Assembly: GCA_964441745.1 (NCBI GenBank) | Contig: CAYTYR010000004.1 | Span: 1 to 64,000 of the forward strand | DNA length: 64,000 bases | Source: an uncultured Clostridia bacterium | GTDB taxonomy: Bacteria; CAYTYR01; UBA6262 | Reading direction: 5' to 3' | In this document: piece after piece, positions 9,611 through 15,946 of the stretch | Position numbering within the stretch: position 1 is the stretch's first letter | Layout of the letters: every line of letters starts with the position of its first letter | Notes under the pieces: generated by a model | Database searches by the model: none | What the model saw: the letters and a program-made list of their open reading frames with translations, nothing else | What the model was told of the DNA's origin: nothing | Program-made: the position numbers and the translations under genes

Positions 9611-9711
9611 GCAATATACCGCAATTCAGGGTCCGGAGCAAATCCGGAGGATATAGAGATGATGGTCGGGCCGCCGTCTAGAGGTTAATCTAGATAGCGG
9701 TTCTTGCTTTT
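9611..9711 (+). ncRNA. Riboswitch-like 5' leader (resembles the nhaA-I / Li+-Na+ class) with an overlapping terminator
   Basis: GGGT-CCGGA(gcaaa)TCCGG hairpin, then TGGTCGGGCCGCC; its 3' end overlaps hairpin CCGCCGTCTAGA/TCTAGATAGCGG followed by TTCTTGCTTTT; GGAGG RBS follows. The class assignment is from recall of the motif, not a search. Confidence 0.6.
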
Positions 9712-9722
9712 ATGGAGGAGTA

Positions 9723-11963
9723 ATGAAAAGGATTTTGTTGTTTTTATTGCCTATTTTAATCATTGTGGCAGCGGTTTTTACCGTTTTCGGCATAGTCCAG
9801 GTGAAGATAGAGCAGGAAAAATTGATGGACGAGCTATACCGCAAAGCTAAATCTGTTGCTGAGACCACTGAGGTATCGGCCCAGTATATTATCAAGAATA
9901 ACGATAAAAAGTCCGCGCGCCGGCTAGTTGACGGATTCCAAAAAAGAGAACGGCTCCAAGGCTGCGTGCTATATGATAAAGATGCCAGGATATTAGCTAT
10001 AACTGAACGTATCTCTGAGTGGCAGGAAAAAGATAAGAGCTATTTAAATCAGGTCATTGAAAATAAACAGCTGGAAGCCGGCATGCAAAAATTTAAAGAC
10101 TTGTCTGTTTACAGTTATGCCATACCAGTGCTTGATGACAATGAGAAAGTAATCGGAGTCGTTGAGCTGATCTATGATACTTCCTATGTCTATACTCGTT
10201 TAACGGTGCTTTGGAAGAATATTAGTATTACCTTAAGTATTATTGTTTTGTTGATTATCATTATCGTTTTGCTGATCCAGCGGCAGATATTTGTCCTGCC
10301 GGTAAAAAGACTGACCGAATGGTTCCATCTCTTCCAACAAGGGGAAACAGATGAACAGCATCCGATCAAAGATAAAGGAGAGCTGGGTAAGTTAGCAAAT
10401 GAAGTTGAACAGGTAGCCTTAAGCCTGCGGGTAGCCAGAAAAACTATATCCGGGGAGGCTCAGGTTAGATTAAAAATTGATGATCATTGGACGGAAACCA
10501 AATTACGGGACCTGGTCCTGGCCAAGCTGGGAGAAAATGCTTTGTATGTAGTCTCCAACAGGGAACCATATATGCATGTTCTTGATGAGATCACTGGCAA
10601 AGCTAAATGGACCCGCCCCGCCAGCGGGGTAGTGACTGCTTTAGATCCGGTATTAAGGGCTTGCGGCGGCACCTGGGTCGCTCATGGCAGCGGTAATGCC
10701 GATAAGAAATTTGTTAATTCCAAAAATAAGTTGGGAGTCCCCCCTGATGATAACCGCTATATCTTGAAAAGAGTGTGGCTCAGTAAGGCGGAAGAAGAAG
10801 GCTATTATTATGGTTTTGCCAATGAAGGATTATGGCCTCTTTGCCATGTGACTCATACCCGGCCGGTATTCAGGGAAGAAGACTGGAAAATGTACCAGCG
10901 GGTCAATCAGAAATTTGCTGATTCGATCCTGGAGGAGTTGCCGGCTAAAAACCCTTTAATTTTTATTCAGGATTATCACTTTACCTTGCTCCCTTTGATG
11001 ATCAAGGAAAGCCGTCCTGATGCCACCGTAGCTTTATTCTGGCATATCCCCTGGCCTAACCCGGAAGTTTTTTCCATTTGCCCGTATTACCGGGAAATAC
11101 TGGATGGTATGCTGGGGTGTGATCTGATCGGTTTCCATGTGCAGGTGCATTGTAATAATTTCCTGGATACTGCTAACCGCTTGATTGAATCACGGGTAGA
11201 TACTGAAAAATTCAGTATTGTCCGGGCTGGCCGGGAAACAGTGATCAAGCCATTCCCGATCAGCGTAGCTGACGCAGGCAACAAAGATAAGGTGGAAGAG
11301 CTGAGCCAGCAGATCGCGAAAATAAAGATTGATCTTGAACTATCCGGTAAAATTATTGGACTGGGCGTGGAAAGAATCGATTATACCAAAGGCTTGTTGG
11401 AAAGGATCCAGGCTATTGACCGGTTTTTTGAAAGGAATCCTCACTACAAGGGCAAAGTTGTCTTTGTACAATTGGCCGCTCCCAGCCGCAGTCATATCAA
11501 AAGGTATCATGACCTGATGGGAGAAATAGATGAGCTGGTGGAAAAAATCAACTGGAAATATTCAGATACCAGCTGGGCGCCGATCATTTACCTGAAACGG
11601 CACTTTTCCCCGGAAGAGATACTGCCTTATTATAAATTAGCGGATTTTTGTGTGGTCAGTTCGCTTCATGATGGCATGAACCTGGTAGCCAAAGAATACG
11701 TAGCGGCAAAGGATGATCTGCAGGGAAGCCTGATCCTGAGCCGTTTTACCGGGGCCGCCAAAGAACTGGACCAGGCGATCCAGATCAATCCTTATTCCAT
11801 AGAAGAATTTGCCGCAGCTATCAGGCAGGCTATTGAAATGCCTAAGGAAGAACAAACCCGGCGGATGGGATTAATGCGCAAAGTGGTGCAGGAAAATAAT
11901 GTCTATAAGTGGGCCGGCACTATAATCAGTGAGCTAACTGCGCTGAAAAAGGAAACAAAATGA
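9723..11963 (+). CDS. otsA: Trehalose-6-phosphate synthase (GT20) fused to an N-terminal TM-extracytoplasmic sensor-TM-HAMP module
   Basis: GT20 motifs VVSNREP, SGVVTAL, FANEGLWPLCH, QDYH, FWHIPWP, ERIDYTKG, DGMNLVAKEY; ~250-aa N-terminal extension with two TM helices and a HAMP-like PVKRL...GELGKLANEVEQV. Confidence 0.92.
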   Translation: MKRILLFLLPILIIVAAVFTVFGIVQVKIEQEKLMDELYRKAKSVAETTEVSAQYIIKNNDKKSARRLVDGFQKRERLQGCVLYDKDARILAITERISEWQEKDKSYLNQVIENKQLEAGMQKFKDLSVYSYAIPVLDDNEKVIGVVELIYDTSYVYTRLTVLWKNISITLSIIVLLIIIIVLLIQRQIFVLPVKRLTEWFHLFQQGETDEQHPIKDKGELGKLANEVEQVALSLRVARKTISGEAQVRLKIDDHWTETKLRDLVLAKLGENALYVVSNREPYMHVLDEITGKAKWTRPASGVVTALDPVLRACGGTWVAHGSGNADKKFVNSKNKLGVPPDDNRYILKRVWLSKAEEEGYYYGFANEGLWPLCHVTHTRPVFREEDWKMYQRVNQKFADSILEELPAKNPLIFIQDYHFTLLPLMIKESRPDATVALFWHIPWPNPEVFSICPYYREILDGMLGCDLIGFHVQVHCNNFLDTANRLIESRVDTEKFSIVRAGRETVIKPFPISVADAGNKDKVEELSQQIAKIKIDLELSGKIIGLGVERIDYTKGLLERIQAIDRFFERNPHYKGKVVFVQLAAPSRSHIKRYHDLMGEIDELVEKINWKYSDTSWAPIIYLKRHFSPEEILPYYKLADFCVVSSLHDGMNLVAKEYVAAKDDLQGSLILSRFTGAAKELDQAIQINPYSIEEFAAAIRQAIEMPKEEQTRRMGLMRKVVQENNVYKWAGTIISELTALKKETK

Positions 11964-12751
11964 AATATTTTCTGGCCCAGCAGGAAAAGGTTTATGCCCG
12001 GATCCGGGGCAGGAAAATATATCTTTTATTAGACTATGACGGGACGATCGCGCCCATCGCTCCCAAACCAGAGCTGGCAGCGCTGTCACCGGGAACCAGA
12101 ACTTTGTTAAAAAAGTTGGCAAATCACCCCCAGTGCGAATTGGCGATCATCAGCGGCCGGTCTTTGGATAATATTAAAAAAATGGTTAAGATCCCTGGAA
12201 TAATTTATGCTGGTAATCACGGCCTCGAAGTGGATTACCGCGGCCGGCGTTTAGAATTCAGCCAGGACCGGGCTTTCCCGGAGCTGGTGAGACAAATCCA
12301 GGCTGGCTTAACCCGGCGGTTGAAAGGAATCAAAGGTGTTTTAATTGAGAATAAAAAGGTAACCATTTCTTTGCATTACCGGCTGGTTGCCGGGAGGCAG
12401 CGGCGTAATGTTAAGACTATTTTCAAAAAACTGATAAAACCATATCAAGACCGCAGGCAAGTGATGGTGACTGCAGGTAAGATGGTGCTGGAGATCCGGC
12501 CTCCCGTAAAATGGGGTAAAGGTGATTTTGCCAAATGGCTGCTGCCGGCAACAGCCTGGAAAGAGAACAAAACTGCGGTTTTCTATTTCGGCGATGATCG
12601 TACTGATGAAGAAGTTTTTAAAGTATTAAAAGGCCAGGCCTATGCTATAATAGTAGGCAAGGGAAAGAGATCTGCCGCTGAATATTATCTTCAGAGTCCT
12701 GCTGAAGTCAGTAAAGTATTAACCCGGATCGCCAACAGTTTGGAGGATTAG
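11960..12751 (+). CDS. otsB: Trehalose-6-phosphate phosphatase (HAD)
   Basis: DYDGT, ISGR, GNHGLE, GKMVLEIRP, GDDRTDE; overlaps the otsA stop. Confidence 0.95.
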   Translation: MKYFLAQQEKVYARIRGRKIYLLLDYDGTIAPIAPKPELAALSPGTRTLLKKLANHPQCELAIISGRSLDNIKKMVKIPGIIYAGNHGLEVDYRGRRLEFSQDRAFPELVRQIQAGLTRRLKGIKGVLIENKKVTISLHYRLVAGRQRRNVKTIFKKLIKPYQDRRQVMVTAGKMVLEIRPPVKWGKGDFAKWLLPATAWKENKTAVFYFGDDRTDEEVFKVLKGQAYAIIVGKGKRSAAEYYLQSPAEVSKVLTRIANSLED

Positions 12752-12758
12752 TATCGAC

Positions 12759-13436
12759 ATGAACAAGATACTGAAAGCGACTGAACCATTCAGGTTTGTG
12801 ACCAGGCTCCATTTAACTGAACTAACCGGATTAAAAGCCAGTAACCTGCAGGAAATGGTTGATATCCTCAAAGAAGTGCCAGGTTCCTGTATTTATCATC
12901 ATACTCATCGTTTTCTGCAGCAACACCAGCATATTTCTCCTGAGCCGCCCAATGATTTTGCCTACTGGGTATCCAACATCTTGGTGGAGGAAGAGCTGGG
13001 TGAAAGTTTGGCTAGTATCGATGTGGTCCAGTTCACTTCCATCCGGCAGTTAAGGGAAAAGATCATCCAAACCATTGCAAGTTATCTTAAAACACATCCT
13101 TCAGCCAGTAAGCGTTTTGCCGCCGCCGGGGATGAATTTTACTTTATCAAATCAGTTAGTTTTATTGTCCCGACAAAATATGAAGTAAATGACCTTCCCG
13201 GGTTCAATGAAGTTCTGACCAAAATCACCACGGATGCCGTCTATTTCCATATTTTTGAATCAAGGCTGAGATTAGGGAAGAAAGACAATGATTTTTCTAA
13301 CTGGTTCGAACATGCGCTCCAGGAAAAAGAATTAGCCGGTAAAATATCCCGGCTGGATCCCTACACTCATACCATGGAAGAACTGCGGGAAGCCATAATC
13401 CGGCTCATAGAAAAGAGGATCAACCGCAATGGCTAA
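12759..13436 (+). CDS. DUF5752-like protein (two internal repeats)
   Basis: IYHH..NDFAYWV..LGE.LA and VYFH..NDFSNWF..LA..I repeats; sits before treT. Confidence 0.75.
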   Translation: MNKILKATEPFRFVTRLHLTELTGLKASNLQEMVDILKEVPGSCIYHHTHRFLQQHQHISPEPPNDFAYWVSNILVEEELGESLASIDVVQFTSIRQLREKIIQTIASYLKTHPSASKRFAAAGDEFYFIKSVSFIVPTKYEVNDLPGFNEVLTKITTDAVYFHIFESRLRLGKKDNDFSNWFEHALQEKELAGKISRLDPYTHTMEELREAIIRLIEKRINRNG

Positions 13437-14640
13437 AATAGAAGATTACATACCCATTACTGGACAATCAACCATCGATGACCTGCGGCTCCTGGCTGAA
13501 AAACTCCAGGGTAAAGTGGTGCAGACTATCAATTCCACCGCCGTGGGCGGAGGCGTGGCAGAAATCCTTAACCAGATGGTGCCCTTACTCCAGGAATTAG
13601 GAGTTGATGCCCATTGGGACCTGATCAAGGGAGGCATGGAGTTCTTTGATGTGACCAAAAAAATGCATAATGCCCTGCATGGCCGGGCCGAAGATATTAC
13701 CCAGCATGATTTTGATGTCTTTATGGAAACCAGCCAGCGTAATGTGGAAGAAGTGAAGATCTATGGCGATATTGTCTTCATCCATGATCCCCAGCCGATC
13801 GGATTGATTAAAAAGAAAAGCGGTAACAAATGGATCTGGCGCTGTCATATAGATGTTTCCAGCCCGGATCAGAAAGTATGGCGGTTCCTGCATGAGTTTA
13901 TTTCCCAGTATGATGCGGCTGTTTTTTCTGCTCCCAGTTTTTCTCCAGTTCTGCCGATCAGGCAATTCCTGATCTCGCCTTCGATCGATCCTTTAAGTGA
14001 CAAGAATAAGGAGCTCCCGGCTGAAACGATTAAAGCGATACAGGATAAATACGGGATTGTCCAGGATAAGCCGATCATTACCCAGATCTCCCGTTTTGAC
14101 CGTCTGAAGGACCCGGTTGGCGTGATCGAAGCCTATCGCCTGGTAAAAAAATATATCGACTGCCAGCTGATCCTGGCTGGCGGTACCGCCAGTGATGACC
14201 CTGAAGGGGTAGAGGTTTTTGAAGAAGTGAAAGAAAAGGCCAAAGATGATCCGGATATCCATATTTTAATGATGCCGCATAATAATATTGAGGTCAATGC
14301 TTTACAAAGGCTTTCTACGGTTATCCTGCAAAAATCCCTTAAAGAAGGGTTTGGCCTGACTGTAGCTGAAGCCTTGTGGAAGGGGAAGCCAGTAGTGGCC
14401 TCCAATGTAGGAGGAATCCCTTTGCAGGTCAAGCATAAATATTCCGGTTTGTTATGTCATTCAGTTGAGGGCGCTGCTTTTGCTATCAAACAGCTTCTTA
14501 ATAATCCTGGTTATGCTAAAAAATTAGGAGAAAGTGGCCGGGAGCATATTAAGAACAATTATCTGCTCACCCGGCACTTAAGAGACTATATGCTGTTGTT
14601 TTTGTCCCTCTATCATGGTGAGGATGTCGTTTATCTTTAA
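13429..14640 (+). CDS. treT: Trehalose synthase TreT-like glycosyltransferase (GT4)
   Basis: NSTAVGGGVAEIL, IHDPQP, WRCHID, PSIDPLSDKN, SRFD..KDP, EGFGLTVAEALWKG. Confidence 0.92.
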   Translation: MAKIEDYIPITGQSTIDDLRLLAEKLQGKVVQTINSTAVGGGVAEILNQMVPLLQELGVDAHWDLIKGGMEFFDVTKKMHNALHGRAEDITQHDFDVFMETSQRNVEEVKIYGDIVFIHDPQPIGLIKKKSGNKWIWRCHIDVSSPDQKVWRFLHEFISQYDAAVFSAPSFSPVLPIRQFLISPSIDPLSDKNKELPAETIKAIQDKYGIVQDKPIITQISRFDRLKDPVGVIEAYRLVKKYIDCQLILAGGTASDDPEGVEVFEEVKEKAKDDPDIHILMMPHNNIEVNALQRLSTVILQKSLKEGFGLTVAEALWKGKPVVASNVGGIPLQVKHKYSGLLCHSVEGAAFAIKQLLNNPGYAKKLGESGREHIKNNYLLTRHLRDYMLLFLSLYHGEDVVYL

Positions 14641-14682: not shown

Positions 14683-14701
14683 ATCTTAACCCGCCTTTTA
14701 G

Positions 14702-15932
<1,231 letters not shown>

Positions 15933-15946
15933 AATAGGAGGAAACA

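Follow-up and report, generated by a model that had tools for sequence, protein, structure and literature searches.

The window analysed here, the first 64,000 nucleotides of contig CAYTYR010000004.1 (assembly GCA_964441745.1) from an uncultured Clostridia bacterium, carries on its forward strand a four-gene trehalose operon whose first gene encodes a trehalose-6-phosphate (T6P) synthase, OtsA, joined to a membrane-embedded sensor module. The sensor-fused otsA (9723-11963; an open reading frame of 746 residues with Pfam and NCBIfam matches; AlphaFold mean predicted local distance difference test (pLDDT) 85 and predicted template-modelling score 0.70) is followed by otsB (11960-12751), which encodes a trehalose-6-phosphate phosphatase of 263 residues (TIGR00685, 175.9 bits against a cut-off of 68; PF02358), by orfY (12759-13436), which encodes a two-repeat DUF5752 protein of 225 residues (PF19027, E 3e-67) and predicted subunit of TreT, and by treT (13429-14640), which encodes a GT4 trehalose synthase of 403 residues (PF21269, E 8e-56). 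A 4-nt ATGA overlap joins otsA to otsB, 7 nt separate otsB from orfY, and orfY and treT overlap by 8 nt, as an earlier note on this DNA had described in proposing that the four genes are coupled. A Shine-Dalgarno-like GGAGGAG, read from the sequence, stands ahead of the otsA start at 9714-9720, and a terminator-like hairpin at 14687-14708 closes the operon before tgt in a pattern scan whose total, 8 found against 5.5 expected, does not exceed chance. A promoter scan was uninformative, with 9 found against 11.5 expected.

The sensor module and enzyme domain of OtsA

By hydropathy, OtsA has exactly two membrane segments (19-residue windows that start at residues 1-13 and 160-179), and the products of otsB, orfY and treT have none. 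Taken together with profile matches and the AlphaFold model, this gives a first transmembrane helix (TM1) at about residues 3-26, a single Cache/PDC-like extracytoplasmic domain (27-163) and a second transmembrane helix (TM2, 164-189), encoded at 9723-10289. The 137 residues between V27 and W164 agree well with the Cache-like region of about 135 residues that the earlier note had placed between two transmembrane helices, ahead of a HAMP-like linker and an intact GT20 domain. Residues 1-256 matched the NCBIfam WalK N-terminus (E 9e-11), while their Pfam matches to dCache_3, sCache_3_2, dCache_1 and CHASE8 (E 4e-5 to 2e-3) and to HAMP (E 0.05) fell below the curated cut-offs. A PDB search with a 12-sequence profile recovered a histidine-kinase extracellular domain (5is1, E 4.5e-4) and the HAMP domain of Af1503 (E 0.01), and the language-model neighbours of the module were sCache_3_2 and HAMP proteins (0.97). 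The AlphaFold model consists of a long first helix, a five-strand PDC-like arrangement and a TM2 helix that continues into AS1, the connector and AS2 (helices at 154-205 and 220-241). The HAMP pattern is likewise present, with P193 opening AS1 directly after TM2 and hydrophobic residues at 194, 197, 201 and 204 and at 221, 224, 228, 231 and 235. The HAMP assignment made earlier for the N-terminus is supported by this residue pattern, and the order of helices and strands in the model fits a Cache domain. Neither HisKA nor HATPase_c had a Pfam match in OtsA, where the linker leads into GT20.

A search with residues 1-270 returned 928 matches in proteins of 410-1306 residues, of which the best 120 were inspected; the other 808 may include kinases. 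PF00982 is present on all of these 120 homologues, a Cache-type label on 13 of them (counted by eye), and those with a named taxon are mostly Omnitrophota. Homologue P0126 passes the Pfam dCache_3 cut-off and the sensor-OtsA fusion P0256 passes that for HAMP (26.5 against 25). The ratio of non-synonymous to synonymous substitution (dN/dS) in the outer domain was 0.03-0.12 in nine of ten close-relative pairs, with dS near saturation and the tenth pair saturated; these ratios indicate purifying selection on the sensor. Positions conserved across distant fusions are concentrated in helix 1, TM2, HAMP and the linker. Relatives of the module outside OtsA include histidine kinases (13 of 56 scanned) as well as P0140 and P0147, two diguanylate-cyclase-like GGDEF proteins in which this TM-sensor-TM module recurs at 29-34% identity. 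The input module and signalling helix are shared with WalK-type TM-sCache-TM-HAMP sensor kinases and with diguanylate cyclases, but the output here is a compatible-solute glycosyltransferase without HisKA, HATPase or GGDEF. Within the family, P0137 is a 913-residue sensor-OtsA with a tandem duplicate of the extracytoplasmic domain. Three genes stand in a row at G000:C10:26677-30499 on the reverse strand (names given by eye): one for a receptor-like outer-membrane protein, one resembling an ABC substrate-binding protein gene and one of TM-sensor-HAMP-HD-GYP type. The sensor of the last is the nearest in-genome paralogue of the OtsA sensor (23%, E 5e-8).

The GT20 domain occupies residues 274-739 (10542-11939; PF00982, 415.8 bits against a cut-off of 32.5, E 3e-124; 5jij, E 5e-88), and its model superimposes on 5v0t with a Z score of 43.0 and a root-mean-square deviation (rmsd) of 2.0 over 437 aligned residues. 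R280, D417, H419, H441, R551, K556, R589, D650 and E658, assigned as catalytic from OtsA structures and lying in motifs that align to 5jij, are kept in 116-119 of 119 homologues. The GT-B fold (Z 41-43), the catalytic motifs and an adjoining otsB are common to this enzyme and the soluble OtsA/Tps1 proteins of Mycobacterium thermoresistibile (5jij), Escherichia coli (1gz5) and Burkholderia xenovorans (5v0t), from which it differs by the 256-residue membrane sensor-HAMP module, by an extra helix at 258-269 and by S301 and H321 in place of a G and a W of 5jij. These two substitutions mean that the substrate range may differ, a point against the reading favoured below. The NCBIfam OtsA equivalog TIGR02400 scored 429.4 bits, below its cut-off of 564.85, and was still the best single-domain model. 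With its intact domain and catalytic motifs, OtsA is predicted to make T6P. Soluble OtsA and TreT structures are listed in PMC11046441.

It is very improbable, in our assessment, that T6P or another GT20 sugar phosphate serves as a second messenger, with the protein as an analogue of a receptor cyclase. The architecture does parallel that of sensor-GGDEF proteins, the S301 and H321 substitutions are compatible with another product, and OrfY-like repeats on sugar-phosphate enzymes (described below) could read such a signal. However, otsB, which would remove T6P, lies downstream of the sensor-fused gene in 39 of 39 loci; the OtsA model (E 1.5e-128) is the best match, ahead of glucosylglycerol-phosphate synthase (E 5e-98); and no T6P-responsive regulator recurs beside the operon. 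The suggestion in the earlier note that T6P might act as a signal thus gained no support, and we continue with T6P as the precursor of trehalose. The order otsA-otsB-orfY-treT is kept in 29 of the 39 sensor-otsA loci.

Distribution of the fusion and geometry of its linker

In a set with one genome per species, 13 of 35 loci are fused and 22 are soluble. The metagenome set comprised the best 80 of 331 loci minus 11 duplicates, and in 50 of the 53 loci with enough DNA the frame is open over at least 700 residues; of the other three, two have a broken frame and one begins at the end of a contig. In addition, a contig from another sample of the same study runs across the junction of sensor and GT20 (10356-11779). 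The fusion is thus genuine, and the homologues together with this contig rule out a lone frameshift or assembly artefact, a concern raised earlier. One database source already names homologue P0054 'trehalose-6-phosphate synthase/HAMP domain-containing protein'. In the literature searched, whose coverage excluded subscription papers, we found no description of the fusion or of the function of DUF5752 and OrfY; the accessible text of PMC8542988 notes trehalose synthesis in Omnitrophota and holds nothing on the fusion.

A distant clade, with about 23% sensor identity, is represented in 12 of 19 genomes from another phylum; one distant cluster carries the name Acidobacteriota, and a single operon of this clade (L060) was seen in full. 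In a quick tree of 42 GT20 domains, whose root depends on one long outgroup, the 19 fused domains form one side of a branch (SH-aLRT support 100) within a soluble subfamily whose members start at the equivalent of W256. The simplest reading of these sequences is a single old fusion, followed by transfer between phyla.

The segment that joins sensor to enzyme, encoded at 10290-10529, consists of HAMP (190-240), a signalling helix (241-255), an invariant W256-T257 cap and a subfamily-specific first enzyme helix (258-269), as delineated by the Af1503 match and by hydrophobic heptads that continue from AS2 into the linker. Its lengths are nearly fixed. The W164-P193 spacing is 29 residues in all 119 close and all 40 distant proteins, that of E229-W256 is 27 in 115 of 119 close and 34 of 42 distant proteins (range 25-28), and that of W256-N279 is 23 in all 119 close proteins and in 37 of 39 distant ones; the sole variable length is the HAMP connector (34-39). 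E227 and W256 are invariant in 42 of 42 distant proteins, these 42 being those among 150 representatives judged to reach the GT20 start. Coiled-coil signal transfer needs a fixed helical register, and near-invariant linker lengths are what mechanical drive of the enzyme by the sensor would give. Solved OtsA structures align only from residues 269-274 onwards, leaving helix 258-269 unaligned, and its position at the end of the linker makes this helix a plausible lever. From the fixed geometry of the linker, allosteric gating of OtsA by the sensor is plausible.

Several results weigh against gating. Besides the sub-cut-off Cache and HAMP scores of this OtsA, the monomer model gives linker residues 244-249 a pLDDT below 50, a value that a flexible tether would explain as well. 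When the whole OtsA model was used for fold searches, GT-B proteins alone were listed, so that these searches did not inform the sensor fold, whose PDC assignment rests on profiles and secondary structure. With a Cache core only about 43% conserved across distant fusions, no shared ligand pocket is apparent. Soluble sister enzymes occur in the same type of operon without a sensor, and in L135 and L153 the frame is broken within the sensor part, either as a pseudogene or through an assembly error. The weak linker confidence and the poor conservation of the Cache core between clades would also suit a different role for the N-terminal module, namely a membrane anchor and dimerisation device that holds OtsA near MscS or a partner, with activity constitutive or set by the riboswitch. 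Chloroflexota link the pathway to the membrane in another way, through an MscS-OrfY fusion beside soluble OtsA, and mscS lies within 6 of 32 sensor-otsA operons. Nevertheless, we consider this role, the main alternative to gating, rather unlikely, as an anchor would need neither a 137-residue folded outer domain under purifying selection nor fixed helical lengths and invariant E227 and W256 residues; the tandem sensor duplicate of P0137 and the use of related sensors to drive signalling enzymes argue in the same direction. Gating of OtsA by its sensor therefore remains the reading that we favour.

Strictly complementary use of sensor-OtsA and MscS was also considered and is ruled out by the mscS genes within sensor-otsA operons, including a stand-alone full-length mscS in L061. 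Among soluble relatives, otsA-otsB of Omnitrophota is followed by a GH15 trehalase-like gene and not by orfY-treT (L017:5664-7484, scanned; L018:8260-10122 and L019:2841-4676, by clustering). Patescibacteria-type soluble GT20 genes lack otsB and lie among glycosyltransferase-like genes (L020, L021, L023, L025, L027, L029 and L035), and their product may be other than trehalose.

The genome carries the operon between queA and tgt. The gap between these two genes measures about 30 nt in two genomes from the same class and about 500 nt in a genome from the same family, while four close relatives (L001, L009, L010 and L013) have the operon at the same site, which indicates that it was probably inserted there in this lineage. 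Among named relatives, 'Elusimicrobia bacterium UBA6262' is the nearest (87% identical). A search for trehalases, limited to the GH15 family, gave no match in the genome, which is 98% complete. Further along, a long hairpin lies between tgt and yajC at 15861-15935, where an Rfam microRNA match is due to chance (E 0.71). In L002, two near-identical c-di-GMP-I riboswitches (2158-2245 and 12913-13000) stand on either side of the operon at a distance, and several trehalose operons have Na+/H+ exchanger genes or an MpsC-family gene as neighbours (L033:1705-3333, L043:317-1453, L082:3-1244 and L001:11090-11578).

OrfY as a predicted partner of TreT

The two repeats of the DUF5752 protein are 24% identical (E 1e-8), in keeping with the two-repeat protein noted earlier next to otsB. 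It is a homologue of Thermoproteus tenax OrfY (PDB 4CSO, E 3e-19; Z 16.5, rmsd 5.5, 211 aligned), and a fold search gave no clear match beyond 4CSO (next Z 7.1). TreT combines PF21269 with a GT1 domain and is closer to the Thermoproteus enzyme (6zj4, E 3e-126) than to that of Pyrococcus (E 1e-98), scoring 363.8 bits against the Thermococcales TreT equivalog NF041139, below its cut-off of 775. Sequence, fold and the order orfY-treT are all shared with the T. tenax OrfY (4CSO) and Thermoproteus uzoniensis TreT (6zj4) proteins. The reversibility that the earlier note ascribed to TreT is doubtful here, since the closest solved TreT is the Thermoproteus enzyme and the T. tenax route is called unidirectional in PMC3634074.

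In all of 30 loci drawn from 151 genomes, orfY lies directly upstream of treT, with or without sensor-OtsA, and 12 of these loci have otsA or otsB within 1.5 kb. The pair also stands out in complex modelling, which covered TreT and OrfY: the modelled complex scored 0.82 against 0.00 for the best of three controls, a level attained by 116 of 157 solved pairs and by 2 of 215 mismatched ones, a calibration roughly valid for our own alignments. Runs agreed in at least 87% of contacts with a partner pLDDT of at least 84. In the model, OrfY strands 17-22 and 130-140 lie on TreT 178-182 and 385-403. H48, D66, W70 and E82 of the first repeat and H164, D178 and W182 of the second are invariant and fall outside this interface, suggesting a separate binding site in each repeat. 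Two observations count against the modelled complex: conservation in the OrfY interface columns does not exceed that in the other columns (0.50 against 0.51), and the C-terminal TreT strand used in the model is absent from three orfY-adjacent TreTs (L084, L091 and L093). The one TreT without orfY (L024; no OrfY by profile) also lacks this strand, and its loss was tried as a marker of OrfY absence; the result was mixed, given the three orfY-adjacent TreTs that lose it too. As 4CSO is the sole PDB sequence match to OrfY, no solved complex of this kind was found. The complex model supports binding of OrfY to TreT. While the molecule in 4CSO is named 'transcription factor', the evidence here favours a subunit of TreT, one that also occurs fused to MscS.

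The earlier note had instead cast the DUF5752 protein as a possible scaffold of a membrane complex, and in its fullest form this would have OrfY gather sensor-OtsA, OtsB and TreT so that the receptor controls both trehalose routes. Translational coupling, the recurrent gene order, a complex of TPSP with a glycosyltransferase in T. tenax (PMC3634074) and, in one genome, the GT20-phosphatase-OrfY fusion of L097 are in its favour. However, the constant pair is orfY with treT and not with otsA or otsB; the positive evidence of binding, from modelling of the TreT-OrfY pair, concerns TreT; both orfY and treT are missing from 5 of 39 sensor-otsA loci; orfY also occurs beside soluble OtsA (L011, L014, L022, L030, L032 and L033); and the TPSP activator of T. 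tenax is a PimA-like GT4 (TTX_1305) and not TreT (PMC3634074). We consider such a scaffold quite unlikely and prefer OrfY-TreT as a module separable from the receptor.

OrfY also occurs in larger proteins. Among the longer homologues, the best 120 of 359 are all MscS-OrfY fusions, and in three loci OrfY directly follows the MscS beta-domain, where an ordinary MscS has its C-terminal domain. Such fusions in Chloroflexota (L014:3004-4824, L030:2423-3781 and L033:3333-4721; P0273-P0392) lie upstream of treT, beside soluble otsA-otsB. At L097:2742-5072 on the reverse strand, a 777-residue GT20-phosphatase-OrfY fusion, with its GT20 and phosphatase profiles matched in part, lies upstream of treT. 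Single OrfY-like repeats were seen in receiver-PPDK_N proteins of about 1000 residues and at the C-terminus of a nucleotidyltransferase-phosphomutase fusion (L094:1622-4600, L096:2312-5308, L098:2385-5369 and L095:3351-6215; weak matches, E about 1e-6).

The leader riboswitch and the proposed control of trehalose synthesis

Upstream of otsA lies an nhaA-I aptamer of the Li+-I/Na+-II family (9629-9679; Rfam RF03057, 40.7 bits against a gathering threshold of 37), which overlaps an intrinsic terminator composed of a hairpin at 9670-9701 and a T-rich tail reaching 9711 (fold of 9660-9712, -21.7 kcal/mol, z -3.5). The two folds are mutually exclusive since the 5' arm of the terminator is the 3' strand of aptamer P2. 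The leader RNA that the earlier note counted as a layer of control is real. Over 30 leaders, P1 and P2 are paired in 98.2% of alignment cells, and 6 of their pairs show changes on both sides; the figure for the terminator hairpin is 86.6%. Counts of this kind are inflated by relatedness. A simple terminator scan did not list the 9670-9711 hairpin; a strict test (hairpin plus at least 5 T in 8) was passed by 23 of 32 leaders. The Na+-I family RF03071 had no match in the genome.

Where the Na+-selective Desulfobulbus variant has C54, the leader has a U. Among 62 metagenome loci, 27 have the core motif upstream, and all 27 carry U54. According to PMC9646797, otsA is downstream of 16 of 944 nhaA-I RNAs, for which the choice between Li+ and Na+ was left open; terminator-type variants are Na+-selective, carry C54 and were found only in Deltaproteobacteria; and the engineered C54U mutant M4 responds to Li+, Na+ and NH4+. 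The present leaders match Li+-I (nhaA-I) RNAs in their Rfam assignment and in otsA as a listed downstream gene, and share the terminator platform of the Na+-II riboswitch with U in place of C54. They thus combine terminator and U54 as does M4, but in phyla other than Deltaproteobacteria. By analogy, Na+ is the most likely ligand, with Li+ and NH4+ probably also accepted. The leaders are natural cases of a form of this riboswitch that had been known solely from an engineered mutant, and they are relevant to the question in PMC9646797 of whether otsA-linked nhaA-I RNAs sense Li+ or Na+.

The only other nhaA-I copy in the genome precedes pal (a Pal/OmpA lipoprotein gene), a TPR-SpoIID gene and the sole mscS (G000:C8:88928-92684; L057, L059), which points to an osmotic and envelope regulon and not to lithium export. 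Divergent nhaA-I copies lie upstream of otsA on the reverse strand in close relatives (L009:2621-2676, L010:5718-5773 and L013:4089-4144); that of L013 stands ahead of an OmpA-family gene, and in L010 two copies are arranged back to back. A partial counterpart is the msc-gt-tpsp operon of T. tenax (PMC3634074), which shares protein-level control of trehalose synthesis and a link to a mechanosensitive channel. There, TPS and TPP are fused and activated by the PimA-like GT4, with no membrane sensor on TPS, whereas here otsA and otsB are separate, no such glycosyltransferase is present and mscS lies elsewhere under the second riboswitch copy. A cation switch is not a constant part of the system: of 62 close loci, 35 do without the motif, as do the leaders of all 12 distant loci examined, which counts against it as a general element, and the riboswitch is optional for the operon.

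On balance, we consider it probable that the locus serves trehalose synthesis under salt or envelope stress, with two levels of control and two routes, and that it combines a receptor-enzyme that gates T6P synthesis, a cation-activated terminator switch and a separable OrfY-TreT module. A monovalent cation would bind the nhaA-I aptamer and stabilise P2, blocking the overlapping terminator so that the four genes are read. We infer that OtsA dimerises through Cache, transmembrane and HAMP segments like a sensor kinase, and that an outside signal would pass by way of HAMP and the fixed-length helix to the W256-T257 cap and the first helix of the GT-B N-terminal domain. Movement of cap and helix would alter domain closure or oligomer state and so change T6P output, upwards or downwards, and OtsB would turn T6P into trehalose. 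The orfY-treT module would provide a second route, with OrfY docking on TreT as modelled and probably regulating it through the two invariant His/Asp/Trp sites.

Cache-HAMP modules drive kinases, chemoreceptors, cyclases and phosphatases, all of them signalling outputs. More tentatively, we put forward as a possible wider reading a one-component receptor glycosyltransferase, with no kinase, cyclic nucleotide or transcription factor in between, whose operon forms an AND gate of inside ion and outside signal, and in which OrfY is a ligand-reading subunit of TreT that hangs trehalose synthase on a release channel where it replaces the MscS C-terminal domain. The TreT-OrfY model offers a concrete job for a protein with a solved structure. 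Direct control of a metabolic glycosyltransferase would, if true, widen the known reach of Cache-HAMP receptors and provide a post-translational osmosensing route for trehalose synthesis, which salt or envelope stress may thereby switch directly.

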